Assembly: GCF_024223415.1 (NCBI RefSeq)
Contig: NZ_CP100500.1
Source of the DNA: Escherichia coli
GTDB lineage: Bacteria; Pseudomonadota; Gammaproteobacteria; Enterobacterales; Enterobacteriaceae
DNA: 64,000 nt
Strand: one strand, 5' to 3'
Made by a program: the position numbers and the translations under genes. The notes beneath the pieces are model-generated. The model worked only from the letters and a program-made list of their open reading frames with translations. It had not been told where the DNA came from and did no database searches. Positions 15,849 through 34,748 of the stretch are shown in pieces; positions within the stretch are counted from its first letter, which is position 1; the number at the start of each line of letters is the position of its first letter.

Positions 15849-16660
15849 GGTTTTCCTTGTAATAATTGTTGGCCAAGCCAAAACCCCAGCAGCGTATCTG
15901 CCCCTGACGTATGCCCCAGCGCCAGCAGCGAATCAATCGCAACAGCGGTACGTTTCGGGCAACTCAGAGCATGAACAAAGTGCAGGAGTGGCGAGGCGAA
16001 ATATCCTTGCGCGGCATAACGTAAATAACTGACGCTCACCGCTGTGGTAACGAGTTGCAGATTGTCGGAACAGGCAAAAAACGGACGACCGGAGCGCGCA
16101 TCTAAAGCGCCATAATACCAGGCCGCCAGCAGCATTCCGCTCAGCGTGTCATCATGACTCGGCGTTAATCCGGGGCCTTTACCCAGCCAGTGCCGCCAGT
16201 CGGTCTTAACGCCATTGAGCGCGGCCTGAAAACAGTGACGAAACTGGCGTAACTCAGCAGGCAGCGGATCGCTTGCCGCCAACGCCAGTGGCCCGAAAAG
16301 CCCGTTTTCCTCCGCGCGTTGCATCCATGCAGCTGCAAGTGGTTGAGGATGCGCAGGCGGCGTAATACGCAGCAAACAATAACGCTGTGGCTGTTTAACC
16401 GTGAAACGCCCGAGGCGAATCCCTTGAGCCACAACCTGTGGTCGTTCATTGCCGCATAATCCACCGCATAACGCATCGAATTGCGCACGGCGAAGCACCC
16501 ATCCTCCGGGGCCGAAACCACTACCCTGACGATGCAGCGTTAACAGTTCGCCGCTTTCCGTCATCAGGTTAATCGCCCGCCGCCACACTCCCGCTAACCG
16601 CCAGGACTGGCGATAATTCGGTGCGCTACTACTGGCAAGCAGAGGATGGATGATCGTCAT
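15845..16660 (-). CDS. ylbF: DUF2877-family protein YlbF
   Basis: 271-aa product from [11 protein letters not shown]...; conserved fdrA-ylbE-ylbF-ybcF cluster. Confidence 0.8.
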
Positions 16661-19923: not shown

Positions 19924-20973
19924 ATGAAAATCAGTCGGGAAACACTCCACCAGCTAATTGAGAATAAACTCTGCCAGGCTGGGTTAAAACGTGAGCACGC
20001 TGCAACCGTGGCTGAAGTATTGGTTTACGCCGATGCCAGAGGGATCCACTCTCATGGCGCGGTGCGCGTGGAATACTACGCGGAACGCATTTCAAAAGGC
20101 GGCACCAACCGCGAACCGGAGTTTCGTCTTGAGGAAACCGGGCCGTGCTCGGCAATTTTACATGCCGACAATGCCGCCGGACAGGTCGCGGCGAAAATGG
20201 GTATGGAACATGCCATCAAAACCGCCCAGCAAAATGGCGTTGCGGTGGTCGGTATCAGCCGGATGGGTCACAGCGGCGCAATCTCTTATTTTGTGCAGCA
20301 GGCAGCCCGCGCCGGATTAATTGGCATTTCGATGTGCCAGTCCGATCCAATGGTGGTGCCGTTTGGCGGCGCGGAAATTTACTACGGTACTAACCCACTG
20401 GCCTTTGCCGCGCCGGGAGAAGGCGACGAGATCCTTACCTTTGATATGGCGACTACCGTACAGGCATGGGGAAAAGTGCTCGACGCCCGCTCGCGTAATA
20501 TGTCTATCCCGGATACCTGGGCGGTCGATAAAAACGGTGCACCAACAACCGATCCGTTCGCGGTACATGCTCTGCTCCCCGCAGCCGGGCCGAAAGGGTA
20601 TGGCCTGATGATGATGATTGACGTCCTCTCAGGCGTCTTACTCGGCTTACCGTTCGGGCGACAGGTTAGTTCGATGTATGACGATTTACACGCCGGGCGT
20701 AATTTGGGGCAATTACATGTAGTTATTAACCCGAACTTTTTCTCCTCCAGCGAATTATTCCGTCAACATCTTAGCCAGACCATGCGCGAATTAAATGCCA
20801 TTACCCCCGCGCCCGGTTTTAATCAGGTTTATTATCCCGGACAGGATCAGGATATTAAACAACGCAAAGCCGCCGTCGAAGGCATCGAAATTGTTGATGA
20901 TATTTACCAGTATTTAATTTCCGACGCGCTTTATAACACGTCATACGAAACGAAAAATCCCTTTGCGCAATAA
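19924..20973 (+). CDS. allD: Ureidoglycolate dehydrogenase
   Basis: 349-aa ORF MKISRETLHQLIENKLCQAGL...; first gene of the allDCE operon. Confidence 0.9.
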   Translation: MKISRETLHQLIENKLCQAGLKREHAATVAEVLVYADARGIHSHGAVRVEYYAERISKGGTNREPEFRLEETGPCSAILHADNAAGQVAAKMGMEHAIKTAQQNGVAVVGISRMGHSGAISYFVQQAARAGLIGISMCQSDPMVVPFGGAEIYYGTNPLAFAAPGEGDEILTFDMATTVQAWGKVLDARSRNMSIPDTWAVDKNGAPTTDPFAVHALLPAAGPKGYGLMMMIDVLSGVLLGLPFGRQVSSMYDDLHAGRNLGQLHVVINPNFFSSSELFRQHLSQTMRELNAITPAPGFNQVYYPGQDQDIKQRKAAVEGIEIVDDIYQYLISDALYNTSYETKNPFAQ

Positions 20974-20994
20974 TTATTGAGACAGGACTTTCTT

Positions 20995-22230
20995 ATGATT
21001 ACACATTTTCGTCAAGCCATAGAAGAAGCGCTGCCCTGGCTTTCCTCATTTGGCGCTGACCCAACGGGTGGGATGACCCGTTTACTTTATTCGCCGGAAT
21101 GGCTGGAAACCCAGCAGCAATTTAAAAAAAGAATGGCCGCAAGTGGGCTGGAAACACGTTTCGATGAAGTGGGGAATTTATACGGTCGCCTGAGTGGCAC
21201 CGAATATCCACAGGAAGTGGTTCTGAGCGGTTCGCATATCGATACCGTGGTTAACGGCGGTAACCTCGACGGGCAATTCGGCGCGCTGGCGGCGTGGCTG
21301 GCAATTGACTGGCTGAAAACTCAATACGGCGCACCGCTGCGTACGGTTGAAGTGGTGGCGATGGCGGAAGAAGAAGGCAGCCGCTTCCCGTATGTTTTCT
21401 GGGGCAGTAAAAATATCTTTGGGCTGGCGAATCCTGACGACGTGCGGAATATCTGTGATGCCAAAGGAAATAGTTTTGTCGATGCGATGAAGGCTTGCGG
21501 ATTTACTCTGCCGGACGCCCCGCTAACTCCGCGTCAGGATATTAAAGCCTTTGTCGAACTGCATATCGAACAGGGCTGTGTGCTGGAAAGTAATGGGCAA
21601 TCAATTGGCGTGGTGAATGCAATTGTCGGGCAACGTCGCTATACGGTGACGCTGAACGGCGAATCAAACCATGCAGGCACCACGCCGATGGATTATCGTC
21701 GTGATACGGTTTACGCTTTCAGTCGCATTTGCCATCAGTCGATCGAAAAAGCGAAAAAGATGGGCGACCCGCTGGTGCTGACCTTTGGTAAGGTGGAGCC
21801 GCGCCCGAATACGGTGAATGTGGTGCCGGGTAAAACCACGTTCACCATTGATTGTCGTCATACCGACGCCGCCGTGCTGCGTGATTTCACCCAACAGTTA
21901 GAAAACGACATGCGGGCGATTTGCGATGAAATGGACATTGGTATTGATATCGATTTATGGATGGACGAAGAACCCGTGCCGATGAATAAGGACCTGGTCG
22001 CCACCCTGACAGAATTGTGTGAAAGTGAAAAACTGAATTACCGGGTGATGCACAGTGGTGCCGGGCACGACGCGCAAATTTTCGCGCCTCGCGTGCCGAC
22101 CTGCATGATTTTCATTCCCAGCATCAATGGGATCAGCCATAACCCGGCGGAACGCACCAATATTACCGACCTTGCCGAAGGGGTCAAAACGTTGGCACTC
22201 ATGCTTTATCAACTTGCCTGGCAGAAATAA
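20995..22230 (+). CDS. allC: Allantoate amidohydrolase
   Basis: 411-aa product from MITHFRQAIEEALPW...; M20 peptidase family. Confidence 0.9.
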   Translation: MITHFRQAIEEALPWLSSFGADPTGGMTRLLYSPEWLETQQQFKKRMAASGLETRFDEVGNLYGRLSGTEYPQEVVLSGSHIDTVVNGGNLDGQFGALAAWLAIDWLKTQYGAPLRTVEVVAMAEEEGSRFPYVFWGSKNIFGLANPDDVRNICDAKGNSFVDAMKACGFTLPDAPLTPRQDIKAFVELHIEQGCVLESNGQSIGVVNAIVGQRRYTVTLNGESNHAGTTPMDYRRDTVYAFSRICHQSIEKAKKMGDPLVLTFGKVEPRPNTVNVVPGKTTFTIDCRHTDAAVLRDFTQQLENDMRAICDEMDIGIDIDLWMDEEPVPMNKDLVATLTELCESEKLNYRVMHSGAGHDAQIFAPRVPTCMIFIPSINGISHNPAERTNITDLAEGVKTLALMLYQLAWQK

Positions 22231-22236
22231 GGAGTC

Positions 22237-22249
22237 ATAAATGGGATAT
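22237..22249. repeat. attL core: left copy of the 13-bp direct repeat ATAAATGGGATAT (includes the native allE ATG)
   Basis: Matches ATAAAAGGGATAT at 33890-33902 in 12 of 13 positions; the allE start codon plus 2 codons are followed by foreign sequence. Confidence 0.6.
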
Positions 22250-22322
22250 ATCTATAACTTATTTTCAATAAGGTATTGATTTAATTAAACAACTTACACT
22301 ACAAAAAGTGCCAAAAATCGCA

Positions 22323-22347
22323 AATTAACTACACCATTAACTACACC
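22323..22347. repeat. Tandem AATTAACTACACC / ATTAACTACACC repeats, left arm (candidate integrase arm-type sites)
   Basis: The same 25-bp tandem is present at 33743-33767 next to int; flanking ~60 bp is also similar at both ends. Confidence 0.5.
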
Positions 22348-22639
22348 GTTCGGCGCACTGTATGAAACAACGTGGAACAAATAGGCACAAGAAATATAAA
22401 GGCGGGTAATTTTAAGGGGGCGTTGCTGTCGATACGGGGATCCACATATCGAGATTGATACCTGGCTTTTTTTCCGGTTAACCTTTAATCAGGCTGGTGG
22501 GCTTTACCTGTTCTGTAGGAGTGGTCATTATGACCATTCAGCCAATGACCTTAATCAGAATTTTTCGCTAAAAAATGACGTTGGCCACGTCATCCGGAAA
22601 GCACAAAATCACGTCGATTTTTAATGGATGGTTAAACCG

Positions 22640-23000
22640 TCTTTTTGTCACGGTGTGTCACTGGTTGTCACGCTCTGTCACGATGTCCGGCCTCCTCACA
22701 TTGAGGATTGTGGAAGAATCAATGGGTTAGTCTTACTACCCAAACTACGGGTAGTTTCCGTAGTTTCATGGTCGAGTTGCAGATCTGCAACTCCCCCATC
22801 AACCACAGGCGAATTTCCGCCTTCGGTCATTCCTTAATCATCTGCGTAATCATAATGATTATTCAGCCACCTCAATTTTGAGGTTTGCTTTAAGTTCAGC
22901 GAGTTACCGCGCCGACTTCCTCAAATTGAGGTTTCCGAAAATATCAGTGGGTTAGCGATTAAGCTGACCATTAATTAAACTGCGAAAATTTCGTAGTTTG
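22640..23000. promoter_or_regulatory. Repeat-dense non-coding region; candidate packaging (cos-like) or TerS-binding region
   Basis: Four TGTCAC copies at exact 10-bp spacing (22646-22681); 20-bp perfect palindrome GAGTTGCAGATCTGCAACTC (22774-22793); three CCTCA-N3/4-TGAGG inverted repeats; no convincing ORF. Confidence 0.35.
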
Positions 23001-23087
23001 TGACTGTCTTTCAGGCAGCTTGTTATCAGTCCTCAGATGTGAGGGATGTAGCCAGCGCAATTTTGCGTTATCGGGAATATCAGCAAG

Positions 23088-23369
23088 TTACCGCCGTAAC
23101 CGTTCCGGCTTCTTCCACTGATAAGTGTTTTTCGCGCTCTCCTGATACATCGCCACGCGTCGACGGTATGCCAGCAACTCTAGTACTCTGATTCGTATGT
23201 CGCGCATATCCACGCCGTTAAGCTCAATACCATCACGGCGCATTACATCAGCAACAACACGCACGTAATTTTCGGCGATCACGCTGTCCGGCTGCGTGGC
23301 CTGTTCGTCATGCTGCTGGCTGATTCCGGTAACGCGGCGGATTAATCCCAGTAGTTCGGCTTCTGTCAT
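23088..23369 (-). CDS. Hypothetical protein (island, distal to head module)
   Basis: 93-aa ORF; no recognisable domain; coding status uncertain. Confidence 0.3.
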   Translation of the reverse strand: MTEAELLGLIRRVTGISQQHDEQATQPDSVIAENYVRVVADVMRRDGIELNGVDMRDIRIRVLELLAYRRRVAMYQESAKNTYQWKKPERLRR

Positions 23370-23423
23370 TGTGCCCCCATCGCTCTGATAGTCTGGTGTC
23401 GTCGGGTCCTTCTGGAATTATGG

Positions 23424-23468
23424 CCCGTTACGGGGCGTCGACCTCGCGGTTTTTCGCTATTTATGAGC
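23424..23468. repeat. Inverted repeat, left copy (flanks the Nu1-like gene cassette)
   Basis: Its reverse complement matches 24169-24212 in about 42 of 44 positions, including a perfect 25-bp core CGCGAGGTCGACGCCCCGTAACGGG. Confidence 0.7.
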
Positions 23469-23661
23469 TTTTTTAGAGGGAGGTTGTTGTTTAATTGTTT
23501 GTCATATCCATTTGATAACTAAGTAAAAATAAAGAGCAATACAACAACCTGATAGTGTTTTTTTGATGCTAAAAATAAAAAAATACTAATTGAATCAAAT
23601 AGTTTTAAAAAAATACGTGGTTGTTGTATTGCGTATTTGATGGCGTAACAGAAAGTGATTT

Positions 23662-24102
23662 TTAACTTTGCTGTTCTGTAACGACTGATTGTTCCATGCT
23701 GGCACGGCGAACGCTTACGGCATGACGCCACCCAGCCAGAAAGCCAGCCATTTTATTTCGTGCCTTGCTCACATCTTCCGGTGAATAGCCGTAAATATGC
23801 AAACCTTCATCAAATCGCTGTTCTGTTTCTTCACTGAAATACTCGTCGCGCTCTGACGCAATCAACCTGGCAACCATAATCTTTTCCAGTGCGCTGGTTT
23901 CTCCGTGGTACTCAATAGCATCAAGATGGCTTTTACCCATGCACCAGAATAATGTGTGTCCGATGTGATAACCGCCGGACTTTCCGCGATCCGCATCAAG
24001 ATATGGCATGCCCTGTTTGGTCCATGCGCGAATAGTGGTTCTGTTGACCTTGAAATGTTCTGCTATTTCCTGCTGACTCACAAAACAAGCTTTATCAATC
24101 AT
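23662..24102 (-). CDS. Terminase small subunit, lambda Nu1-like (HTH DNA-packaging protein)
   Basis: 146-aa ORF; N-terminus VSQQEIAEHFKVNRTTIRAWTKQGMPYLDADRGKSGG parallels lambda Nu1 (..IRTIQNWQEQGMPVLRGGGKG..). Confidence 0.7.
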   Translation of the reverse strand: MIDKACFVSQQEIAEHFKVNRTTIRAWTKQGMPYLDADRGKSGGYHIGHTLFWCMGKSHLDAIEYHGETSALEKIMVARLIASERDEYFSEETEQRFDEGLHIYGYSPEDVSKARNKMAGFLAGWRHAVSVRRASMEQSVVTEQQS

Positions 24103-24168
24103 AATGTTACCTTAATCATGCGATTAAATGTTAATCAAGTGGTGGTGGTGTCACCTTCACGGAAAAAC

Positions 24169-24212
24169 GTCATAAATAGCGAAAACGCGCGAGGTCGACG
24201 CCCCGTAACGGG
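24169..24212. repeat. Inverted repeat, right copy (flanks the Nu1-like gene cassette)
   Basis: Partner of 23424-23468 in inverted orientation; the two enclose ~700 bp containing only the Nu1-like gene and an AT-rich tract. Confidence 0.7.
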
Positions 24213-24233
24213 TCCACATGCCGGAAAGGACCC

Positions 24234-24258
24234 GCAAAAAAAGCCGGATTTCTCCGGC
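24234..24258 (-). terminator. Rho-independent terminator after orf137
   Basis: Minus-strand hairpin GCCGGAGAAATCCGGC followed by a T-run; nearly the same terminator recurs at 26509-26532. Confidence 0.5.
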
Positions 24259-24264
24259 CTTGTC

Positions 24265-24678
24265 TCAGATGGTTTTCAGTATGCGATCGATGTCGCCGTC
24301 ATCGCCCTGGTTTGTGCCATCGTATGCCATGCCAGCTGATACGGCTTTCGGGCTGTGCATGTCCATAAAGTTTTCAAAGGCTGAAGTAAGCTCTGGTGCA
24401 ACCTTCGGGCGTTCCTGCTCTATGGTCATGCTAAGGATGCTTTTAGCCGTACCAACATCGATACAAGGCACGTTAGCCATTGCACGTAACAGCGGCTGGT
24501 AGTCGTCAGATTCATGAAGCGCCATAATCGCATCAGCGCGCGGCTTGTCCTGTTCTTCCAGTTTGTTGAGTCGGTGTATGGCCTCGTAGGTTGATAAACC
24601 TCTGTCAGCCATTGCCCGCGCTTCGGCTTTAAATTTACTCGCCAGCGGTAGCTTCATGATACTTTCATTCGTTGCCAT
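24265..24678 (-). CDS. Hypothetical head-module protein (137 aa)
   Basis: ORF directly downstream of the D-like gene in the same operon; acidic C-terminus; no recognisable domain. Confidence 0.5.
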   Translation of the reverse strand: MATNESIMKLPLASKFKAEARAMADRGLSTYEAIHRLNKLEEQDKPRADAIMALHESDDYQPLLRAMANVPCIDVGTAKSILSMTIEQERPKVAPELTSAFENFMDMHSPKAVSAGMAYDGTNQGDDGDIDRILKTI

Positions 24679-24690
24679 CGTTCCCCCTGC

Positions 24691-25026
24691 TTATCGTGCC
24701 AGCGGCTGAACGGATACGCCGGAACCCGCAAAGGCGGCGCATTTTTTCGCATCGGTGTCGACGCTATCAGGCCAGTTAACGGCGGCAATATTGAATATCC
24801 CCGTTTTGTAACACTGTGCTGATTTCTGCTTTGACGTGTCCACGGGGTGCGAAGTCAGATAAACAGCTTTGCCAGATTCCTGACCATCCCACGCCTTAAA
24901 CTCGCCATTGTCTGCCAGCATCAGCGGGGTAAATTCCTGAATAACGCCAGCATCAGCGGCAAAATGTACCAGCGTCGTGGATACCTGCTGGCTGCCTGAA
25001 AATAACTCAATGTATGGAGCGTCCAT
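24691..25026 (-). CDS. Head decoration protein, lambda gpD-like
   Basis: 111-aa ORF with gpD-like motifs (TPLMLAD..AWDG..KTGIF..WP..AAFAGSG) and lambda D size. Confidence 0.75.
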   Translation of the reverse strand: MDAPYIELFSGSQQVSTTLVHFAADAGVIQEFTPLMLADNGEFKAWDGQESGKAVYLTSHPVDTSKQKSAQCYKTGIFNIAAVNWPDSVDTDAKKCAAFAGSGVSVQPLAR

Positions 25027-25037
25027 AGAATCCCCCG

Positions 25038-26093
25038 TTAAGCAATTTTGACGGTAACAAATTTGCGAATATCTGCCGGTACCGGCTGCGGTGCGCTGTG
25101 CGTCTGCACGTACTCAATCGCCGGATCGCCGTCCTCAATCCAGTTTTTCGGGTAGTACATGTTTTGCGTTGCGCCCGTTCTTACCGCTTCCTGATCCATA
25201 ATCGCACCATATGCCACCAGCCCTTTATTGTTGGTGTTACCCAGGACCAGCAAATCAGGCTCAAGGAAATATTTTTCGGTGCCGTCGCTGTCAGTGTATT
25301 TGCCGGAATAGACGATAAGGGCCAGATCACCAAGATAGCCTTTAAAGCTCACCACTTCGCCCAGGTTTTTACAGGCCAGCTCGGCGGCGGATTCTGACCC
25401 ACGGGAAAGATCGTACAGTTCACGGAATTTTTTAAAGCTGCGTAATGTGCGCCATACCTCACCGCCCATAATCATGACGTTGGCGGGGCAACCTGCCTGA
25501 TCAGCATAAAGCTCGATGTCATAGATTGGGTCGTGCATGTCTTTATCCTGCTGGGACCATTTTTTACCACTGGCCTGCTGTATGATGCAGTTTTCCGGTA
25601 TTTTCCAGTCGATTTCATAGCGTTCTATGCCTTCGCCCTCAATGATGTTTTTTCCGGTCGTTACCGCATTCACCGCCAGCCATTCAACACGCGCTTTAAT
25701 GGCGTTTACCTGGCGGCGCATGTTGCCAGTAATCAGGCGCATACGGCGATAGGTTGGGTCGTTAAGCTGTGCCGGATCTTCTCCAGCCATGCGCATGATG
25801 GTCTTTGTTGGATCGATTTCGTGCTTTGGCTTCATGTAGCCTGGTTTAATCGTGCTGGTTTCGTACCCTTTATCGCGCTGGACCTGACTACCCACCATAG
25901 GAGAACAGAACGCAGACATCGTAACCTCTTCAATGTCCAGGGTGTCCAGCATGATGTTTTGGGTGTTGAAGGTCGCCACGTTCGGGAAAAACAGCGTGGT
26001 AAACAGCGGACTAAATTTAAATTCCGAAATATCCCCGCGATTCAGGTACGCGAAAAGCTGGTTAGTTGTAAGTGCCGTTGCTTTGCCTGTCAT
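25038..26093 (-). CDS. Major capsid protein, lambda gpE family
   Basis: 351-aa ORF with many lambda gpE identities (PGYMKPKHE, DPTYRRMRLI, VVSFKGYLGDLALIVYSGKY, VLGNT, YPKNW..GDPA, SAP). Confidence 0.85.
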   Translation of the reverse strand: MTGKATALTTNQLFAYLNRGDISEFKFSPLFTTLFFPNVATFNTQNIMLDTLDIEEVTMSAFCSPMVGSQVQRDKGYETSTIKPGYMKPKHEIDPTKTIMRMAGEDPAQLNDPTYRRMRLITGNMRRQVNAIKARVEWLAVNAVTTGKNIIEGEGIERYEIDWKIPENCIIQQASGKKWSQQDKDMHDPIYDIELYADQAGCPANVMIMGGEVWRTLRSFKKFRELYDLSRGSESAAELACKNLGEVVSFKGYLGDLALIVYSGKYTDSDGTEKYFLEPDLLVLGNTNNKGLVAYGAIMDQEAVRTGATQNMYYPKNWIEDGDPAIEYVQTHSAPQPVPADIRKFVTVKIA

Positions 26094-26299
26094 TATTCAC
26101 CTCCGTGAACCTGATTGATACCCAGCGCCGCACGTAAATAGGTGCGCACCTGCCAGCCTGTTGACGGCTCAACCATCGCCAGCGGATCAAGTCCTGCCGC
26201 AATGCCTGCTTTTACATTCTGCTGGTGGCGTTCCTTGAGCGCCTCCACGATGTCGGGGCTTATGTAGACCGTCACCCCGCCTTTTTTCTCTTCTGCCAT
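26093..26299 (-). CDS. Hypothetical protein translationally coupled to the capsid gene (68 aa)
   Basis: ORF whose stop overlaps the capsid gene start; no recognisable domain. Confidence 0.45.
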   Translation of the reverse strand: MAEEKKGGVTVYISPDIVEALKERHQQNVKAGIAAGLDPLAMVEPSTGWQVRTYLRAALGINQVHGGE

Positions 26300-26508
26300 A
26301 GTCAGAAATTCCTCTTTGACTTAAAAAATCATAACTGGATGTTCATCCAGTCCTGATTATAATCATGATTGCATTTTGTGCAATAATGTTGAGTTGTGTT
26401 GCAAATTATGAAATGATTATCCCGATCATGTGTGTCAGTGCACCATAAAAAACCTCGTATACAAAAGCCCGATAAGCCCCCTGTGACCTTATCGGGCTTT
26501 TTTTAGGC

Positions 26509-26532
26509 GTAAAAAAGCCGGATTGCTCCGGC
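26509..26532 (-). terminator. Rho-independent terminator after the PerC-like gene
   Basis: Minus-strand hairpin GCCGGAGCAATCCGGC followed by a T-run. Confidence 0.5.
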
Positions 26533-26539
26533 TGTGTGC

Positions 26540-26812
26540 TCACTTCTGCGGGTAGTTGCGCCATATTGCTTTGCCAATACCAGCTATCCCCATTTGTTTT
26601 TCAGTGCGATTAACTGACCTTTTCAGAGCGCCTAAATCATCCGGCGGCTCCGGTGGCCTCTGTGCCTTCCGTGAACATTCCAGCCGTCGCATTGCCACCT
26701 GTGCGCGTTCCTTGTCTGTCTCCACCAGCATCATCACTTCACCCCATCGCGCGGCCGCCCTCCGGTAAAATCCTTTCGCCTCCAGTTCCTCCGCTATCCG
26801 GTCATGTACCAT
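26540..26812 (-). CDS. PerC-family transcriptional regulator-like protein
   Basis: ORF 26540..26932; likely start MVHDRIAEELEAKGFYRRAAARWGEVMMLV, resembling PerC-family proteins; assignment from memory of the family. Confidence 0.5.
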   Translation of the reverse strand: MVHDRIAEELEAKGFYRRAAARWGEVMMLVETDKERAQVAMRRLECSRKAQRPPEPPDDLGALKRSVNRTEKQMGIAGIGKAIWRNYPQK

Positions 26813-26822
26813 CGTCACCCCC

Positions 26823-27233
26823 TCAGAACGGAATATCATCACCGTAAGGGTCATCGCCTCCCGCTGGTGGCTGATTACCCTGTGTGCCTGTGGTTTTGCG
26901 TCTGTTCCCGCCAGGACGTGCCGCACGGGCACTGATTACGCTGTCTGCGATGACCTGCCAGCCCTGCCGCGTTTCGCCGTTCTGGCCTGTCCACTGGCTT
27001 ACCTGCATGTTACCCGCCACGCTCACCAGTTCGCCTTTGTGGTGTCTGGCCAGTGCGTCGGCCTGTCTGCCAAACGCCAGGACGGATAACCACATCGTCG
27101 CCGTTCCGTCATCTGCCTGGCTGCATGGCAGGGGAACCGCCATACTCGCCATCGCCATTTGTGTCCCTTTGCTGGTCTGTTTTGTCTGCGGGTCGTCCAC
27201 CAGCCGCCCGTAAGCCGCTATCTGTGCTGTCAT
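26823..27233 (-). CDS. Single-stranded DNA-binding protein (SSB)
   Basis: 136-aa ORF with OB-fold-like N-terminus, Gly/Pro-rich linker and the canonical acidic SSB tail ...GDDIPF. Confidence 0.8.
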   Translation of the reverse strand: MTAQIAAYGRLVDDPQTKQTSKGTQMAMASMAVPLPCSQADDGTATMWLSVLAFGRQADALARHHKGELVSVAGNMQVSQWTGQNGETRQGWQVIADSVISARAARPGGNRRKTTGTQGNQPPAGGDDPYGDDIPF

Positions 27234-27487
27234 GCTGTCTGCTCTCCGGTTTTAACATTGATGGTTGTCACCTGTTCCGCTCCGGCAATCTCCCGCTCTG
27301 TCAGCGTGGCAAAGTTTGCCGCCGTCGTTGTCATGAATGCGCTTATCAGTTCGGGATGTGCTTTCGCGTATCCTTCCCCCGTGTTGCGGTCGATGATTTT
27401 TATCGCCACCCTCAGCCAGTGCTCTGTAAGGTCAATGGCGCGGTTATGTGATTTCTTCTGATTGTTAAATTTTTCTGATGTGTGCAT
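27230..27487 (-). CDS. Hypothetical protein (85 aa) upstream of ssb
   Basis: ORF overlapping the ssb start by 4 nt; no recognisable domain. Confidence 0.45.
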   Translation of the reverse strand: MHTSEKFNNQKKSHNRAIDLTEHWLRVAIKIIDRNTGEGYAKAHPELISAFMTTTAANFATLTEREIAGAEQVTTINVKTGEQTA

Positions 27488-27529
27488 TTTTATTTTTACC
27501 CCCTCGTTTAAAAAGTTTTGAGTTGTGGT

Positions 27530-27770
27530 GCACCTCCTCTACCTCTCTACACAATCATCTTTCAGGTCAGTAATGGCGCGGCTTTCAGCGGGGTAGAGGG
27601 CTTTTTTGGCCCTCTACCCGCCATCTACCACCCCCTCACAAATGCCCTGAATTATGGTAGAGGGTGTAGAGGGCTTTTAAGTACCTTCTACCTGCCATCC
27701 ACCCAATCTATCCACATGAAATATATGTAATTATTTTCTTAAGGTAGAAGGGGTAGAGGGCTTTTGTCTA
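27530..27770. repeat. Iteron array; candidate replication origin of the island
   Basis: At least six copies or variants of GGTAGAGGG(C)TTTT and its complement CCCTCTACC in about 240 bp of non-coding DNA directly 3' of the primase gene. Confidence 0.6.
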
Positions 27771-27773
27771 AAA

Positions 27774-29522
27774 CTATAAAAACGCGTCGCAGTCGTCTGT
27801 TGTTGTCACGTTGGTTTGCGTAAACCCTTTAATCCTGCGCGTTATATATTCATGACCGTAAACTTTCGCCGCTGGCTTCATGGCCTTGCTGAACTCAGCC
27901 ACGTTCAGCGGTTTGCTCCTGCCTGCATACGCCATAAACGCCAGATAGACGCGGTAAAGGCTGTTTCTGGTCGTGTACTTCACTGAATCGCCACCGCCGC
28001 CCATCATCAGGCCACGTGCTTCCTCCAGAAAATTCAGGAACTGGCAAAACTCAATAACCGGATCCGTCTGTTGCTTTATTGCCAGAGCTTCATCACCGTC
28101 TCGCTGTTCAATGAGTAAAGCCCGTGCCTTTTCAGGGTCGGCAAAGTTCGCCAGCAAGCGGCGGATAATGACAGGGATTTCAGCCGCGATCTTTTCCGGT
28201 AGCTCCCTGTCTTTTTCTGCCTCGCTTACGATGTTATCGAACCGGAATATCACCCGACGACGTGACACGCCTCCTGCCCGTTCGGTGAATATCATCGGGT
28301 TATTATTGGTTGCCAGCACAACCGCCCTGATTACCGCCGTGAATCGCTTTTCATATTTCGGGTTGATTTCCACGGGGTCGCCGCCCGTGATTTTCTTGAT
28401 GCCCGTTCCTTCGCCTGTATATTTCGGCTGGTCTGCCAGGACAATAAGCCTACTCCCGACAACCTGCGCACGCCCACCAGCATCATCAAGCGATGTCATC
28501 TCAGCGCTTACCGTGTTCTGTTTCCCTGCCAGAAGGCTGGCTATGTGTGTGAATGTACTTTTACCGCTCCCGCCGTCTCCGGTGGCCTCAATAAACATCT
28601 GCCAGTCGTACCGGTTCGCCATAATCATGTACAGCGCGGCACATATACGCATCATCTTGCGCGGGTCTTTTCCGGCAGCGTGATCAAGCCATTTATGAAA
28701 GTTTGGCGCGTTGTCGCGGATATTCTCACCTGGTACTGGCGGCGTGTACTCAATGCCGTTGTGTGTGGTGATCCAGTTCTCCGGCGTGTGCGGGGAAAAT
28801 TCCCCCGTTTTCAGGTCAAGCGCACCATTGGCGAACGGCAGCAAATCGCCGGACGGCTCGCCCATTGGTTCGGCAATAACTTTTAACGCTTCCACGGCGT
28901 TACTGATTACGCGCTTGCTGAAAGTGGCCCTGTGCTCTGAATAGATCGCCACCATTTCGCGGCTCAGTTCCATTGTGCTGACCGGACACCATACCCCGCC
29001 GCGCCATACGTGAACGATTTCACTTTCCAGATGCACACAAACGCCATCAAATCGACCAGCAAGCATCTGTGCGCGCTCACTGTCTGCCATTTGTGCCAGT
29101 TGCGTATTTTTCTGCTCCGGCATGGTAAGCCCTGCGGCAATATTTTCACGCTCAGCATTCAGATAGCGCCGCCAGTTTTCACACTTCTGACCGTGCATTC
29201 CTTCAGAGTAAAAATTCGCATCCTGAATATCTGCCGCCGCCAGCTTCTGACCAATCTTTTTGGTCTCCACTAAATCCAGTTCTCCGGCCTGGTACAGCCT
29301 TACGCGTTTTTTTCCATCCGGAACAATTTTCAGCGCATCAAGTTCAGCAAGCTGATTTGGCCCAAGCCACACAGGCGGCACATTATCGCCGGATGCGGGA
29401 CCGTCCTTCTCCTGCCACTGTTGTGCATGCGACCAGGCATCACTACCCGCAAAGATAATTACCTCTGTGTCTTTGTGTTTTATTCCGCGTGGCTGTTTTT
29501 TTACGTTCGGTGCCAGTTTCAT
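27774..29522 (-). CDS. Phage/plasmid primase-helicase (P4 alpha family; D5_N plus P-loop NTPase)
   Basis: 582-aa ORF; Walker A GDGGSGKST; architecture and size typical of satellite or PICI Pri-Rep proteins. Confidence 0.85.
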   Translation of the reverse strand: MKLAPNVKKQPRGIKHKDTEVIIFAGSDAWSHAQQWQEKDGPASGDNVPPVWLGPNQLAELDALKIVPDGKKRVRLYQAGELDLVETKKIGQKLAAADIQDANFYSEGMHGQKCENWRRYLNAERENIAAGLTMPEQKNTQLAQMADSERAQMLAGRFDGVCVHLESEIVHVWRGGVWCPVSTMELSREMVAIYSEHRATFSKRVISNAVEALKVIAEPMGEPSGDLLPFANGALDLKTGEFSPHTPENWITTHNGIEYTPPVPGENIRDNAPNFHKWLDHAAGKDPRKMMRICAALYMIMANRYDWQMFIEATGDGGSGKSTFTHIASLLAGKQNTVSAEMTSLDDAGGRAQVVGSRLIVLADQPKYTGEGTGIKKITGGDPVEINPKYEKRFTAVIRAVVLATNNNPMIFTERAGGVSRRRVIFRFDNIVSEAEKDRELPEKIAAEIPVIIRRLLANFADPEKARALLIEQRDGDEALAIKQQTDPVIEFCQFLNFLEEARGLMMGGGGDSVKYTTRNSLYRVYLAFMAYAGRSKPLNVAEFSKAMKPAAKVYGHEYITRRIKGFTQTNVTTTDDCDAFL

Positions 29523-29818
29523 TTTTTACCCCTGAATACGTTAAGCATCTTTTTTATTTCCTGAATATTGGCGCGTGCTTTCTCCCTGCTGGTTGGTTTA
29601 CTGCGGGGCGCTGCCTGTACCAGAGAAAAATCACGCCGGAACTGATAAACAGGCATCACGCAATCATATTCGTAGCCTTCACGGCGGTAAGTGATGCGCC
29701 GTTCCTCCACGCCTTTAATCGTTACCGTGCCGCCGTACTGGTCGCGGTAAATATCGCCGTTCATAAATTCAGGCCGAGCGGGGCCGCTGGCATTAACGCC
29801 AGTATTTTTCATTCCCAT
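29519..29818 (-). CDS. Hypothetical protein (99 aa), translationally coupled to primase
   Basis: Stop overlaps the primase start by 4 nt; basic protein of unknown function. Confidence 0.5.
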   Translation of the reverse strand: MGMKNTGVNASGPARPEFMNGDIYRDQYGGTVTIKGVEERRITYRREGYEYDCVMPVYQFRRDFSLVQAAPRSKPTSREKARANIQEIKKMLNVFRGKK

Positions 29819-29822
29819 ATAA

Positions 29823-30065
29823 TTAAATTCCGTTTGTGTGGTGTTTTAATTCGTCAATTTTTTCTAATGCTTTGTTTATCTTGCTGGTGGAAATATCCAG
29901 CAATTCAGAAATAGCAAATATAAGTCTTGCCGTTGATTCATCTCTTTCGTTGTTTGACAGCAATTGAAACCACACGTTTGTAATTTCAATTGCCGAATTA
30001 TTATAGGTTATTGCACTGTTCATGTATTCCGACACCTCTGCAAGCGAAAGTTTATTATTCTCCAT
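29823..30065 (-). CDS. Hypothetical protein (80 aa), AT-rich accessory gene
   Basis: Locally AT-rich ORF within the minus-strand operon. Confidence 0.4.
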   Translation of the reverse strand: MENNKLSLAEVSEYMNSAITYNNSAIEITNVWFQLLSNNERDESTARLIFAISELLDISTSKINKALEKIDELKHHTNGI

Positions 30066-30246
30066 AACGTTCTACCCTCTCATCAATTAACCACAGTGCA
30101 ACACTTCCTGACAGTCTTGCCAGAAGGCCAGCTAATGCGGATATATCATCATCATTTAATTTATTAGGGTACGCTTCAAGAAGTCTGCAAATAATTTCGG
30201 TTTGGTGGGCGCGTTCAGCGGCTTCGTGTAATGTAATTTCCTTCAT
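30055..30246 (-). CDS. Hypothetical protein (63 aa)
   Basis: ORF overlapping its neighbours by a few nt (operon). Confidence 0.4.
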   Translation of the reverse strand: MKEITLHEAAERAHQTEIICRLLEAYPNKLNDDDISALAGLLARLSGSVALWLIDERVERYGE

Positions 30247-30431
30247 TAATGCACCTCTTTTAATTCATACACTGCTGAAATAATGACTTGTGATAAGCCA
30301 TATTCTGATGATTCGCTTCTCACCGCAGCAATAGCCGTCTGAACATTAACAGCCTTCACATTCTGAGCGATACCAATTGTGTGGCCTAGTGGGTTAACAG
30401 CTCGGGCAAATACACGGAAGGTTTTAAGCAT
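30246..30431 (-). CDS. Hypothetical protein (61 aa)
   Basis: ORF overlapping its neighbours (operon). Confidence 0.4.
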   Translation of the reverse strand: MLKTFRVFARAVNPLGHTIGIAQNVKAVNVQTAIAAVRSESSEYGLSQVIISAVYELKEVH

Positions 30432-30789
30432 GGCGCACCCCCTGAATAACCTGATATCCGCAACTGGTCAGCAATTCGATAAATTCCGGCAGAGTGCCAA
30501 AACAGCAATCAGTGCGTAGCTGTTCGCAGGATACCTCAACGCCGTTTTCGTAATGGCTCACTATGCGCCCGGTAAAATGCGGATCATCATCGTGATGGCA
30601 CGTTGACGGTTTCATCAGCCGCGCGCGTTCCGCCAGTTCCAGCAATGCTTCAACGCTTCCGGCAATTGCACCATCCGGCAGGTGATAATTACTTACTACG
30701 CGTCCATTCTCTACATTGACCAGTAGCTGTCCGGTAAATTTCTCACGAAACTGAACGCGGTTAAGATCGGTAAGTGACAGGTTAATCAT
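30424..30789 (-). CDS. Hypothetical Cys/His-containing protein (about 122 aa)
   Basis: ORF track 30424..30831; ATG at 30789 overlaps the upstream gene stop (ATGATTAA); contains CHHDDDPH...C..CC, a possible metal site. Confidence 0.45.
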   Translation of the reverse strand: MINLSLTDLNRVQFREKFTGQLLVNVENGRVVSNYHLPDGAIAGSVEALLELAERARLMKPSTCHHDDDPHFTGRIVSHYENGVEVSCEQLRTDCCFGTLPEFIELLTSCGYQVIQGVRHA

Positions 30790-30979
30790 GGCACACCTCC
30801 TGACGAATACGGGCGGCGAATACAGCGACACAACCGGACGGGCAACGGTTACGCGCTTCGCGTTCTGTCCAGGCGGTCACGTGGATAATTTGAGATTCTC
30901 CGGCACTCAGTGCCAGAAAACGCCACACAAAGGCGGTTTGTGTGTGCGCAAGGCGTGGGGTATGCTGTGTTCCAGCCAT
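30782..30979 (-). CDS. Small protein resembling P4 Icd-like / Ash-family (host cell-division inhibitor-like)
   Basis: 65-aa ORF MAGTQHTPRLAHTQTAFVWRFLALSAGESQIIHVTAWTEREARNRC...; SD GAGGT 7 nt upstream; first gene of the leftward operon; family assignment tentative. Confidence 0.4.
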   Translation of the reverse strand: MAGTQHTPRLAHTQTAFVWRFLALSAGESQIIHVTAWTEREARNRCPSGCVAVFAARIRQEVCHD

Positions 30980-31069
30980 AATCGTTACCTCAATTAATGG
31001 TTTGGTTAGAAGCCCGTTGGTGTTCATAGCGCCAGCGGGCTTTGTCTTTTCATCGATTACCTCAATAAA

Positions 31070-31151
31070 GGTGTCAGCCACTATACTAGTAACAGGTGTC
31101 AGCCACGTCAATAGTGTTTTTCCATTTTCTTGTGTGTATACTGTCAGCCAC
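31070..31151. promoter_or_regulatory. Three direct repeats of (G)GTGTCAGCCAC in the divergent promoter region (candidate operators)
   Basis: Copies at about 31070-31081, 31095-31106 and 31141-31151, between the leftward icd-like operon and the rightward RHH gene; a TATACT -10-like hexamer abuts copy 3. Confidence 0.5.
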
Positions 31152-31172
31152 CTAATAACAAGGAAATCAGAT

Positions 31173-31352
31173 ATGGCAACGAAAGCAGTTAATGGAAAAT
31201 CCAAAAAACTTGAGGCACGAGTCCCCCATGCAATAGCTGACGCTTTAGAAAATTTAAAGGAAGAAGGCGAAAGCACTGGGCAATTTATCGTTTCGGCACT
31301 TGAAGGCGAGATCAAACGCCGCCAGCGCCGGAAGGCCAAAGAATCAGAATAA
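31173..31352 (+). CDS. Small RHH/Arc-like DNA-binding protein; candidate island repressor
   Basis: 59-aa ORF MATKAVNGKSKKLEARVPHAIADALENLKEEGESTGQFIVSALEGEIKRRQ...; SD AAGGA; transcribed divergently from the replication operon. Confidence 0.55.
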   Translation: MATKAVNGKSKKLEARVPHAIADALENLKEEGESTGQFIVSALEGEIKRRQRRKAKESE

Positions 31353-31400
31353 TCACTATCAGCGCCGTGGTGTGAGGTACTGCGGCGCATTGTTTTAAAG

Positions 31401-31601
31401 GTGATAATTATGAATAACCAAGAACTACAAAATAAAGCATTATCAATTATCATGCGCCAGCGTGAGAAAACCCGCAGGGAAATAAATAAGGCATTAACCC
31501 GCACTGAAAATCTTAAAGTTCCTGATAAGTTCGCCCTTGATCCTTTTGTCGAGAAATACCCTCGGCGCTTAAAAGCAAACAAAAACCGCCCACCTGGCTG
31601 A
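31401..31601 (+). CDS. Hypothetical protein (66 aa) downstream of the RHH gene
   Basis: Short ORF on the same strand as the RHH gene, before a plus-strand terminator. Confidence 0.3.
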   Translation: MIIMNNQELQNKALSIIMRQREKTRREINKALTRTENLKVPDKFALDPFVEKYPRRLKANKNRPPG

Positions 31602-31758
31602 CAATCCACCAGCAAGCCAGGACACTGATCACATTGGCCACCGTGACAGGTGGCCTTTTCTTTGCCCGTTATCCGGCAATTGTGGCGCTTCGCCACACGG
31701 TTGATATAATCCCACTGCTCATATTCATTTTTTGCGCAGTAGGTTAATTGTTCAGAAA

Positions 31759-31787
31759 GGCGGCTCCTTATCGGGGCCGCTTTTTTT
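31759..31787 (+). terminator. Rho-independent terminator ending the rightward RHH transcription unit
   Basis: Hairpin GGCGGCTCC-TTATC-GGGGCCGC followed by TTTTTTT. Confidence 0.45.
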
Positions 31788-31928
31788 ATGTCTGAAAAAC
31801 CGCGATTTTGTTGTTTTTCAGTTTCACAAGGCCGAACGAAGCCCCGCCCCTGTTCGGGCGTATATCCAGTCTTCATGGTTAAATCTCTGTATTAGTGGAT
31901 GGGTGGCGGCTGTGTGCCGCCAGTCTTT

Positions 31929-32117
31929 TTAGTGAACTGCCTCGCAGCTTTCCTTCCATGCCAGAACTTCGGATAAAGACCAGCCAACGGAACGACCGCC
32001 CAGCTTACGCCGTGATGGGAATTGTCCGGCCTTTTCCAGGCGGTAGCGGCATGAGCGGCTAAGCCCTGTTAGCTTTTCGCATTCTTTTTCACGTATAAAC
32101 CGATCAGTGCTTAACAC
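31929..32117 (-). CDS. alpA: AlpA-family phage regulatory protein (excisionase/activator-like)
   Basis: 62-aa ORF ...KLTGLSRSCRYRLEKAGQFPSRRKLGGRSVGWSLSEVLAWKES, the AlpA HTH signature; adjacent to int. Confidence 0.8.
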   Translation of the reverse strand: MLSTDRFIREKECEKLTGLSRSCRYRLEKAGQFPSRRKLGGRSVGWSLSEVLAWKESCEAVH

Positions 32118-32409
32118 TATTGCCCCCTTTCGTTTCTTAAAGAGTTATTTCGTGTTCTATTGCGTTGGTATGTGTCTGATTGTGTCAGGGTGATTCAGAG
32201 TTGGCAAATGTTGGTGGCGGGTATTTTACAGAAACGGGGTTATTTTAATAAAAAACATTTTAATTCAGTATTATGCAAAGGCATAAAATCTCGTTTTATG
32301 CCTTTTTTCTCACTATTTAAAGCGTTATTCGCTAATGTATAAAAAACCAGTTGAGCATTAAAAATCAGCAACTTATAAATCTGTATACTTTTTGGCCTCT
32401 TGTTCGTGG

Positions 32410-32443
32410 TTGTTTCACGTTGTTGCGTATTGTTTCACGTTGT
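32410..32443. repeat. Two direct repeats TTGTTTCACGTTGT between int and alpA
   Basis: Identical 14-mers at about 32410-32423 and 32430-32443 in the int-alpA intergenic region. Confidence 0.4.
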
Positions 32444-32491
32444 ATCTGTGCACTTATCCAGTATGCGCATACTGAAAAAACACGAAAAAAA

Positions 32492-33742
32492 TTATTTTCT
32501 TCTGGTTACTGGTAGCGTGGTTACGTTTTCATGTGCTCCCGCCAGTATCTCCAACCGCTCCACCCACATATCCAGCGCATTGCGTTTCGCATCCAGATAA
32601 CGGGAATGATTATAAACTCGCTGCATTCCTGGCATCTGGTGGCCTGTAAGCTGCTCCACGACGTGAGGATCCACGCCTAAATCGTTCAGCATCGTTGTAA
32701 AGGTGCGCCGGATGTCATGCAGTGACCAGTGAGGGTGTTTAAGCCTCCTGTGCGCTAATCTTCCATACTGCGATACGCTGGCCTCCTGTTTCACTTCCCC
32801 CAGCAATAAGCCCGTGTGCCTGTTCTGCTCCACCAGCTGCGTGACGAACGGCAGTATCGCTTCCGGTATGGGCCGGAATATGGCTACCTTCGTTTTGCTG
32901 TGCTCCTTCGGAACGGTCCATAGCATTTCGGTAAAATCCCACTCCCCGATCTCCGATAGCCTCAGTTCTACTGTCCTGGCTCCGAAGACAATCAGGAGGC
33001 GGATTAGTGCGACGTAGTAAGGGGAAAATATTTTTTTGTCCAGTGCCTGCAATAATTCGCCAAGTTCTTTGTTACTTAAGACACGCTGACTTATATCCGG
33101 TTTTTTCCCAACGTCAGCAACACTCATATCATCAAGAACGTTGCTGATTGCATAGCGCCGCTTCCGGCAGAACTTAAGCGCCTGTTTGCATGTCTGTAGC
33201 AGGAATCCGGCGGAAACAGGGGCTTGCTTTGCCACCCGATCAAAACAGGCCAGCCAGTGCCGTAGCTCGCATTTATCCAGCGGCATAGCACCAATCTGCT
33301 GTATTACGTGATTATTAAGTCGCCTTTTCAGGGCGATATAATCCACGCGGTTTTCCTTTACGTAATACTCAAGCCAGTAGGTAAGCGCATCGCCAACCGT
33401 TACAGGCTTTAACGCTTCCTGTACGGTGTAATTCATCTCATGACGTGGATTTTTCCCCTCAGCCAGCCATGCGCGGCACTGTGCGGCTTTTTCCCTGGCT
33501 GCTTTCAGGCTCAGATCAGGATAATTTCCCAGCTTAATCCGTTCCGGTCGTGCTCCCCTTCCCGTTCCGGCCCTGTAGGTGAAATACCAGGTTAAAAGGC
33601 CGCTGGTTGAATGCCTGACGGTCAGGTTTCCACCGTCATTAAGAAAGACTGTTTTTTGGGCGGGTGTGCCGTTGATTTTCCTTAGCTGTGTATCGCTCAG
33701 TTTGTTAAGTGCTCTGCGCATAATTTTGATTCCGGTCATCAC
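32492..33742 (-). CDS. int: Tyrosine recombinase/integrase (P4-like, DUF4102 N-terminus)
   Basis: 416-aa ORF; N-terminus ...LNDGGNLTVRHSTSG...WYFTYR; C-terminal catalytic region HDIRRTFTT...VYNHSRY; lies at the island edge next to attR. Confidence 0.9.
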   Translation of the reverse strand: MMTGIKIMRRALNKLSDTQLRKINGTPAQKTVFLNDGGNLTVRHSTSGLLTWYFTYRAGTGRGARPERIKLGNYPDLSLKAAREKAAQCRAWLAEGKNPRHEMNYTVQEALKPVTVGDALTYWLEYYVKENRVDYIALKRRLNNHVIQQIGAMPLDKCELRHWLACFDRVAKQAPVSAGFLLQTCKQALKFCRKRRYAISNVLDDMSVADVGKKPDISQRVLSNKELGELLQALDKKIFSPYYVALIRLLIVFGARTVELRLSEIGEWDFTEMLWTVPKEHSKTKVAIFRPIPEAILPFVTQLVEQNRHTGLLLGEVKQEASVSQYGRLAHRRLKHPHWSLHDIRRTFTTMLNDLGVDPHVVEQLTGHQMPGMQRVYNHSRYLDAKRNALDMWVERLEILAGAHENVTTLPVTRRK

Positions 33743-33767
33743 AATTAACTACACCATTAACTACACC
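33743..33767. repeat. Tandem AATTAACTACACC / ATTAACTACACC repeats, right arm (candidate arm-type sites)
   Basis: Identical to 22323-22347; located immediately upstream of the int start. Confidence 0.5.
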
Positions 33768-33889
33768 GATCGTTGCACAAAGGGCTACAACGTGAAACAA
33801 GCTGGAACAAGAAAAATCACAAATTTGTTTATAATCAAAAACATAATGCACAACCTGAAACATTATGAAACGGCAAAAAACACTAATTG

Positions 33890-33902
33890 ATAAAAGGGAT
33901 AT
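33890..33902. repeat. attR core: right copy of the 13-bp direct repeat (ATAAAAGGGATAT)
   Basis: 12 of 13 match to attL; a TAA stop and AAG replace the native ATG start of allE. Confidence 0.6.
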
Positions 33903-34679
33903 TTAAATAACGTCACCGGTTACCGCGATGATTTACTGGCTAACCGTGCGATTGTGAAACACGGTAATTTCGCACTGTTAACACCAGACGGTCTGGTAAA
34001 AAATATTATTCCGGGCTTTGAAAATTGTGACGCGACAATCCTCTCCACGCCAAAGCTGGGTGCCTCTTTTGTTGATTATCTGGTCACACTGCATCAAAAC
34101 GGTGGCAACCAACAGGGCTTCGGTGGCGAAGGCATTGAAACGTTCCTGTATGTGATCTCTGGAAATATCACTGCCAAAGCCGAAGGCAAAACATTTGCCT
34201 TAAGCGAAGGTGGCTATCTTTATTGCCCGCCAGGCTCCTTAATGACGTTTGTTAACGCCCAGGCCGAAGACAGCCAAATCTTTTTATATAAGCGCCGCTA
34301 TGTTCCGGTAGAAGGCCATGCACCGTGGCTGGTTTCTGGCAATGCCAGCGAACTGGAACGCATTCACTATGAAGGTATGGATGATGTGATCCTGCTGGAT
34401 TTTCTGCCCAAAGAGTTAGGTTTTGATATGAACATGCATATCCTCTCTTTTGCACCAGGTGCCAGCCATGGTTATATCGAAACACACGTTCAGGAACACG
34501 GTGCCTATATTCTTTCCGGTCAGGGGGTTTATAACCTCGACAATAACTGGATCCCGGTGAAAAAAGGCGATTACATCTTTATGGGCGCTTATTCTTTACA
34601 GGCTGGTTATGGCGTAGGGCGTGGTGAAGCGTTCAGCTATATTTACTCGAAAGATTGCAACCGCGACGTAGAGATTTAA
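33897..34679 (+). pseudogene. allE: Ureidoglycine aminohydrolase gene truncated at its start codon by island insertion
   Basis: Reading frame GYLNNVTGYRDDLLANRAIVKHGNFALL... resumes at 33897 with no ATG; an in-frame TAA lies 2 codons upstream; first in-frame start is GTG at 33954. Confidence 0.8.
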
Positions 34680-34721: not shown

Positions 34722-34748
34722 GCCACGGTTTATACCGTGGCTTTTTTT
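34722..34748 (+). terminator. Rho-independent terminator after allE
   Basis: Hairpin GCCACGG-TTTATA-CCGTGGC followed by TTTTTTT; a REP-like palindrome follows. Confidence 0.55.

Follow-up and report, generated by a model that had tools for sequence, protein, structure and literature searches.

It is within the allDCE operon of Escherichia coli, in a 64,000-nucleotide stretch of contig NZ_CP100500.1 (assembly GCF_024223415.1; hereafter, the window), that a phage-inducible chromosomal island (PICI) of the EcCICFT073 type lies inserted between allC and allE, and at the insertion junction allE has lost its ATG start codon and its Shine–Dalgarno (SD) sequence. The best-supported reading, to which we give a probability of about 0.7, is that the island silences allE as an automatic consequence of where its attachment site lies. 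Judging from the sequence, the tyrosine integrase of the island would have inserted it in the 10 nt that separate allC from allE, with strand exchange within the heptamer GGGATAT, starting at the G of the allE ATG. To the left of this overlap, the allE side now consists of the island arm ...TTGATAAAA, by which the T of the ATG becomes A (AAG) with an in-frame TAA before it, and both the AAGGAG and the AllS-activated allD promoter are displaced by 11.65 kb, across an oppositely transcribed island. In this manner allE would be cut off from transcription and from translation initiation, and AllE would be either absent or reduced to a trace of N-terminally shortened product begun at CTG15 or GTG21. 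We infer from this anatomy that the allE transcript and the AllE protein would be missing, and that a growth phenotype may follow.

The Insertion Junctions and the Attachment Site

The junctions were aligned with the island-free E. coli strain L004, taken as the empty-site reference (...TAAGGAGTTATAAATGGGATATTTAAAT). In L004, AAGGAG comes after the allC stop and ATG GGA TAT TTA AAT AAC comes next, and the 261-aa RefSeq allE starts at this ATG, 10 nt past the allC stop and behind the AAGGAG. The heptamer GGGATAT occurs once in the empty site and twice in the window, one copy per island end (positions in Table 1) at a core-to-core distance of 11,653 bp, and it is the only sequence common to both junctions and the empty site. 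On the allC side, window 22229–22249 reads AAGGAGTCATAAATGGGATAT and then turns into foreign DNA (ATCTATAACTT...), and on the allE side, at 33885–33902, foreign DNA (...AATTGATAAAA) passes into GGGATAT TTA AAT AAC in the allE frame. An earlier note on this DNA, made from the letters alone, had claimed that the native ATG is replaced by AAG and preceded by an in-frame TAA, and this is what stands there: TAA (33891–33893) and AAG (33894–33896) precede GGA TAT TTA AAT AAC where L004 has its ATG, and allE is left without one.

The bases that flank the two cores tell the parents apart. The allC-side core has the chromosomal T at its left and the island A at its right, and the allE-side core has the island A at its left and the chromosomal T at its right, a segregation of mismatched bases by parent that is as expected if the crossover took place inside the 7-bp GGGATAT. 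The first base of this overlap is the G of the allE ATG, and the allE-side copy (attR) spans the last base of codon 1 together with codons 2 and 3. Taken with the integrase domains and with the arm repeats present on both island arms, the core pattern and the mismatch segregation are consistent with an attachment site of the lambda type.

The allC-side junction (attL), for its part, keeps the allC stop, the AAGGAG and the ATG, and the SD and ATG of allE left behind there now head a 12-codon open reading frame (ORF), MGYIYNLFSIRY. Since attL retains the SD together with ATGGGATAT and attR retains GGGATATTTAAAT..., precise excision by Int and AlpA would restore the operon: recombination within GGGATAT would rebuild the empty site and a wild-type allE, and the lesion would be reversible. 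The attP form (...ATAAAAGGGATAT+ATCTATAAC...) had 0 matches in viral contigs, a 404-nt synthetic attP was unmatched in the phage collection, and the attP scan of metagenomes returned a single contig, which is an integrated junction and not the excised form. With the attP form not found, the island origin of the A therefore rests on 18 identical junctions and on the arm shared at four chromosomal sites.

Recurrence of the Junction and the allE Alleles

The junction GATAAAAGGGATAT was present in 18 of the 18 records read, namely the window, eight complete genomes, one metagenome contig, and eight other assemblies, the last found via the exact 241-aa GTG-start product, which is indexed in 61 collection blocks. 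These records span several allE alleles, and their integrase genes differ by up to ~9% in nucleotides from that of the window. At least two cargo types occur among the allC/allE islands, 2012C-4502 having a terminase/portal/capsid set, and the occupied allC/allE sites read all carry this one integrase family. Among complete E. coli genomes, an integrase adjoins allE in 12 of 5,426 (0.2%). Because the junction is the same in all 18 records, the loss of the start codon is built into integration at this site and is, on the strength of these sequences, a property of the element's integration at allC/allE and not a mutation of the strain. That the AAG might stem from a later point mutation or from faulty sequencing, confined to one strain, has next to no probability left, and we consider this idea refuted: the same A recurs in every junction, across strains, allE alleles and island variants, and it belongs to the arm TGATAAAA, which stands ahead of the overlap at each of the four sites.

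Apart from its start, the allE of the window is intact, and its only other change with respect to the reference, Y142H, is present in all the other island-bearing sequences read. As for the apparent private changes found in island-bearing allE genes (Q123H, V139I, G98E, and T118M), the alleles that carry them have 100% identical counterparts among island-free genomes. Given that the island-bearing alleles are the island-free alleles, a relaxed-selection test is powerless here and an intact ORF is uninformative; measured by the pace of point mutation, the allC/allE insertions are, as far as these alleles tell, recent. Of the 18 records with the junction, 17 have an intact allE ORF. The remaining one, AST85, has a 1-nt deletion near codon 95 that frameshifts an allele otherwise identical to that of E200086, and this could reflect either the decay of an already silenced gene or a fault in the assembly.

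The gene is also lost by other means. In X14-3 (NZ_CP084055.1, 4121133–4122692), IS1 splits allE, with its halves annotated as two "cupin domain-containing proteins", so that allE has been lost in nature independently of the island; about 80 of the 5,426 genomes have no allE match at all. As to the integrase, in some assemblies the allE-adjacent copy is called at 357 aa and not 409 aa, the genes being ~91% identical to that of the window and containing indels (one such gene lies at ~2.6–2.9 kb of its extracted stretch). These shorter integrases may be degraded, in which case the allE lesion would be permanent in those strains.

Translation and Transcription Signals Left to allE

Any extension of the allE frame upstream is blocked by the in-frame TAA before the AAG, and two in-frame codons, CTG15 and GTG21, are the starts that come into question. 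For the native start, the anti-SD duplex energy comes to −8.8 kcal/mol, compared with −2.4 for CTG15 and −1.5 for GTG21; the gene-body mean over all positions is −2.35, and with both energies at background no alternative canonical start combines a ribosome-binding site with the whole conserved domain. The earlier note had named a GTG 19 codons in, with no obvious SD, as the first in-frame start. The missing SD is borne out by these energies and the GTG is indeed the first canonical start, but it is codon 21, thus 20 codons after the lost ATG, and the in-frame CTG15 (33936) had been overlooked. Furthermore, GTG21 reads GTT in two island-bearing genomes, and non-canonical CUG starts reach only ~0.02–3% of AUG even behind a good ribosome-binding site (bioRxiv 10.1101/063800).

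As to transcription, allDCE is a single AllS-dependent operon activated at the allD promoter (PMC12535856). That promoter now lies 11.65 kb from allE, across genes transcribed toward it. The earlier description of an 11.6-kb island of convergent transcription separating allE from the allD promoter was accurate, as the island measures 11,653 bp and its large ORFs are all on the minus strand, converging on allC. Strong terminator-like hairpins of the plus strand stand in the island at 31009 (16 pairs), 31362, 31636, and 31904, and no promoter-like site on the plus strand between 33133 and 33977 passes the consensus scan, although a scan of this kind does not prove that a promoter is absent.

Several observations nevertheless weigh against silencing. 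A perfect TATAAT lies at 33830–33835 (+), ~60 nt upstream of allE, where weak outward transcription is possible; its best −35 matches at only 2/6 positions, and the islands of the same integrase family at tqsA and abgR do not share the hexamer. RefSeq/PGAP annotates allE as a 247-aa gene from the CTG in 8/8 genomes read, seven of them intact and only AST85 frameshifted, and other gene callers give the 241-aa GTG-start product. The TIGR03214 profile begins at AllE residue 13–14, and the CTG15 product would therefore keep nearly the whole domain, while the GTG21 product loses profile positions 1–9; the truncated products score 333–339 bits (cut-off 200), and since they pass the profile, the gene is annotated as intact. 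In the Deinococcus radiodurans homologue 1SFN, only 9 residues precede the position equivalent to V21. Lastly, the allE ORF is otherwise undamaged and shows no evolutionary signature of lost constraint, although recent insertions would lead one to expect just the same.

It is from these same observations that one could argue for a functional allE, with a shortened AllE made from CTG15 or GTG21 on a transcript coming from the int-proximal arm of the island or from read-through. We regard this as rather unlikely, given that both starts lack an SD, that a CUG start would yield a few percent of AUG at best, that no promoter-like site met the scan criteria, and that a codon reading GTT in two island-bearing genomes is not a conserved rescue start. 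The intact ORF in 17 of the 18 records decides nothing, the alleles being equal to island-free ones. In addition, conservation between E. coli and Enterococcus faecalis extends over the N-terminal 13 residues, the E. faecalis homologue sharing the very N-terminus of AllE (MGY.NN..GY..LL), and this hints that these residues matter. A structure prediction made from a 4-sequence alignment gave a pLDDT (predicted local distance difference test) below 50 for residues 1–23.

Within the same region, at 33928–33957, an out-of-frame ATG opens a 9-codon ORF (MIYWLTVRL) whose TGA overlaps GTG21 (GTGA). It is present in wild-type allE too and has no SD, and it is probably meaningless.

Expected Consequences for Allantoin Catabolism

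The silencing of allE remains, then, the reading that we prefer, and in certain conditions a lack of AllE should have consequences. The anaerobic use of allantoin requires a set of early enzymes that includes AllC and AllE (PMC12535856), and an E. coli ΔallE mutant has a prolonged lag once it has been starved of nitrogen for 24 h, like the ΔallB and ΔallC mutants (PMC7417836). The earlier note had concluded that ureidoglycine aminohydrolase activity is lost or greatly reduced; the sequence-level parts of its interpretation are right, the loss of activity would follow from them, and the interpretation as a whole is partly supported.

It is also possible, although we find it doubtful, that allE is silenced at nearly no cost, with ureidoglycine being lost chemically or via another enzyme and allantoin use being little affected. 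Ureidoglycine is reportedly labile and decays without an enzyme, and this could soften the phenotype. The IS1 insertion in X14-3 and the genomes without an allE match speak for such neutrality, and so does the fact that the integrase family tolerates truncation of tqsA in what is apparently a large group (256 matches at 80–90% identity, one of them read), an insertion that is at the same time a precedent for gene damage by this family. Against neutrality stands the starvation lag of the ΔallE mutant. The occupancy of the site in 0.2% of complete genomes, on alleles shared with island-free strains, fits short-lived insertions, and it fits a rare attP variant equally well. We give very little credence to a further idea, namely that the island is a reversible switch or rewiring device for allantoin nitrogen catabolism, in which AlpA/Int excision would restore allE in a subpopulation, or the int-proximal arm would drive a shortened AllE under the control of the island and not of AllS, with the family retargeting itself by overlap swap.

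In practical terms, the RefSeq allE name and its CTG start hide the knock-out, and therefore metabolic models and pathway calls for island-bearing strains would wrongly score allantoin catabolism as complete. One and the same allE allele with and without the island offers a ready-made isogenic contrast for the role of AllE in anaerobic allantoin use and in nitrogen starvation. The type of event, in which a mobile element knocks out a host gene via its attachment site, is known, and what is new is the site for a known satellite family; the understanding of satellites and of the allantoin pathway is left unchanged.

Anatomy of the Island

The features of the island and its surroundings are collected in Table 1. 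Its one-directional int, alpA-type gene, primase/rep gene, and packaging/interference order are those of a PICI, and its 11,653 bp fall within the ~8–15 kb of such islands. The ten largest ORFs were compared with PHROGs, and among them are an integrase, an AlpA-type protein, a primase, an SSB, a protein of the head decoration type, a major head protein, and, as a weak match, a TerS-like N-terminus; nothing for tail or lysis turned up in these ten. The integrase of the window is 93% identical to that of the O157 island at phoQ/roxA, and the integrases at the allE-adjacent position carry PF13356 (Arm-DNA-bind_3) together with PF00589. From their position just downstream of the primase gene, the three GGGGTAGAGGGCTTTT copies are probably the iterons of the island replication origin.

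The 26-nt direct repeat AATTAACTACACCATTAACTACACCG (at 22323 and 33743) was considered as the att site and rejected, given that the empty-site comparison places the junctions ~80 and ~130 bp outside the repeats, which are thus arm sequences. The 26-mer opens a longer, 75-nt direct repeat (22323–22397 and 33743–33817, 79% identical), and its reverse complement is what the 2018 PICI table lists as the "att site core" of EcCIDI14 (PMC6092414).

Two more features of the island deserve mention. At 30782–31876 (−) lies a 364-aa ORF whose last ~65 residues match a phage transcriptional repressor and whose first ~275 are unmatched; it is inside the ~29.8–31.8 kb segment that differs from EcCICFT073, and it may be an accessory or regulatory gene. 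Near the int-distal end, at 22878–23093, there are three 32-nt repeats (TTGAGGTTT...GTTACCG), with similar repeats in the O157 island (1320–1740 of the extracted stretch), and these could serve in packaging (cos/pac) or as binding sites.

Table 1. Features of the allDCE operon and of the inserted island, and attachment cores of the integrase family (positions in the window unless stated otherwise).
Feature	Position	Strand	Basis or remark
allD	19924–20973	+	
allC (allantoate deiminase), second gene of allDCE	20977–22230	+	ORF list; RefSeq homologues start 18 nt further in; TAA 22228–22230 untouched
Native allE translation signals at the allC side: SD AAGGAG 22229–22234, ATG 22241–22243	22229–22243	+	Empty-site alignment
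New 12-codon ORF MGYIYNLFSIRY	22241–22279	+	First three codons from allE, then island DNA
allC-side 7-bp crossover GGGATAT	22243–22249	.	Empty-site alignment
EcCICFT073-type PICI, 11,653 bp core to core	22250–33895	−	PHROGs, gene order
Putative arm-type integrase repeats TTAACTACACC, two copies, arm far from int	22323–22348	+	Repeat family; binding predicted
Three GGGGTAGAGGGCTTTT copies (16 nt), spacing 73–87 bp, downstream of the primase gene	27590–27765	.	
DNA primase / replication protein, 582 aa	27774–29522	−	phrog_864, E = 1.3e-165
AlpA-like excisionase / transcriptional regulator, 62 aa	31929–32117	−	phrog_2790
Tyrosine integrase, 409 aa, transcribed away from allE	32492–33721	−	phrog_1
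Putative arm-type repeats TTAACTACACC, two copies, int-proximal arm	33743–33768	+	Repeat family; binding predicted
Island-derived in-frame TAA and AAG at the allE ATG position	33891–33896	+	
allE-side 7-bp crossover GGGATAT	33896–33902	.	Empty-site alignment
Rest of the allE frame, to TAA 34677–34679	33897–34679	+	Translation
In-frame CTG, codon 15, without SD	33936–33938	+	RefSeq/PGAP start, 247-aa product
GTG, codon 21, without SD	33954–33956	+	First canonical in-frame start, 241-aa product
Terminator-like hairpin and T-run after allE	34722–34741	+	Probably the native operon end
Attachment core, allC/allE: TGATAAAA-GGGATAT	33885–33902		Window
Attachment core, phoQ/roxA: TGATAAAA-TATGTCC	16320–16345 of extracted stretch		O157:H7
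Attachment core, inside tqsA: TGATAAAA-TGCTGTT	1828–1850 of extracted stretch		FORC_043
Attachment core, next to abgR: TATAAAA-TCACGAT	1828–1850 of extracted stretch		STEC719

The Integrase Family and Its Chromosomal Sites

The int-proximal 334 bp of the island matched in 874 complete genomes, and one example was read from each of three identity groups. Across the four sites of Table 1, the arm TGATAAAA is constant, the next 7 bp are site-specific, and the chromosomal side loosely follows ATTnnTAAC; the ~25 bp beyond the overlap also differ between allE-type and phoQ-type islands. The integrases of the allE and phoQ sites are 90–93% identical and are not grouped by site. The cores at phoQ, tqsA, and abgR agree with the published att cores GGACATATTT, ATAACAGCA, and ACATTATTAATATCGTGA (PMC6092414 Table S1). 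It is a remote possibility that the integrase family finds new targets through exchange of the 7-bp overlap alone, and its choice of site would then be naturally programmable.

The table of Fillol-Salom et al. (2018) has eight E. coli PICI sites, without allC/allE (PMC6092414), and no mention of allE (ylbA) as an integration target was found in the literature searched. The allC/allE site adds one to these eight, and it is one at which damage to the host gene escapes pseudogene detection. In FORC_043, a related island lies inside tqsA, an AI-2 transporter gene, which RefSeq calls a pseudogene with its N-terminus missing (1839–2744 of the extracted stretch). The int end matches at 80–90% identity in 256 complete genomes, of which FORC_043 is the one read, and this set of 256 may belong to the tqsA-inserted group.

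Comparison with Known Systems

The island of the window resembles EcCICFT073, the prototype of Gram-negative PICIs (PMC6092414), in the sizes of its genes and in their order, which agrees gene for gene; they comprise int, an alpA-like gene, an icd-like gene, DUF4222, primase, SSB, perC, major capsid, decoration, and three small ORFs, the capsid and decoration genes thus being carried by both. The two share ~89% nucleotide identity over 9.3 of 11.66 kb, the same arm repeats, and the same TGATAAAA beside the overlap. In contrast, EcCICFT073 sits between phoQ and roxA (ycfD) with the core AAATATGTCC and interrupts no reading frame, whereas the window island has the GGGATAT overlap, ~25 bp of different sequence beyond it, a different module at ~29.8–31.8 kb, and the allC/allE site. 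The EcCI042-type PICIs in tqsA (PMC6092414 Table S1) have in common with the window island the integrase family, the arm sequence, and the damage to the target gene. In tqsA, however, the crossover falls inside the coding region and the pseudogene is flagged, while allE loses only its start codon, its SD, and its link to the promoter.

In active lysogeny, for instance that of the Listeria phage phi10403S in comK, the element interrupts a host gene and its precise excision restores that gene. The window island is alike in interrupting a gene whose sequence would be restorable, given that the allC side keeps the SD and ATGGGATAT. Active lysogeny differs in its regulated, non-lytic excision, PICI excision normally accompanying the lytic growth of a helper phage. 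Finally, in the secondary-site integration of lambda and its "saf" variants, the 7-bp overlaps differ, and attP and attB are identical within the overlap only. The integrase family described here is similar in that its four sites differ precisely in the 7-mer, but, unlike the lambda variants, its variants are lineages that occur in nature, and every one of them has a chromosomal target of its own.

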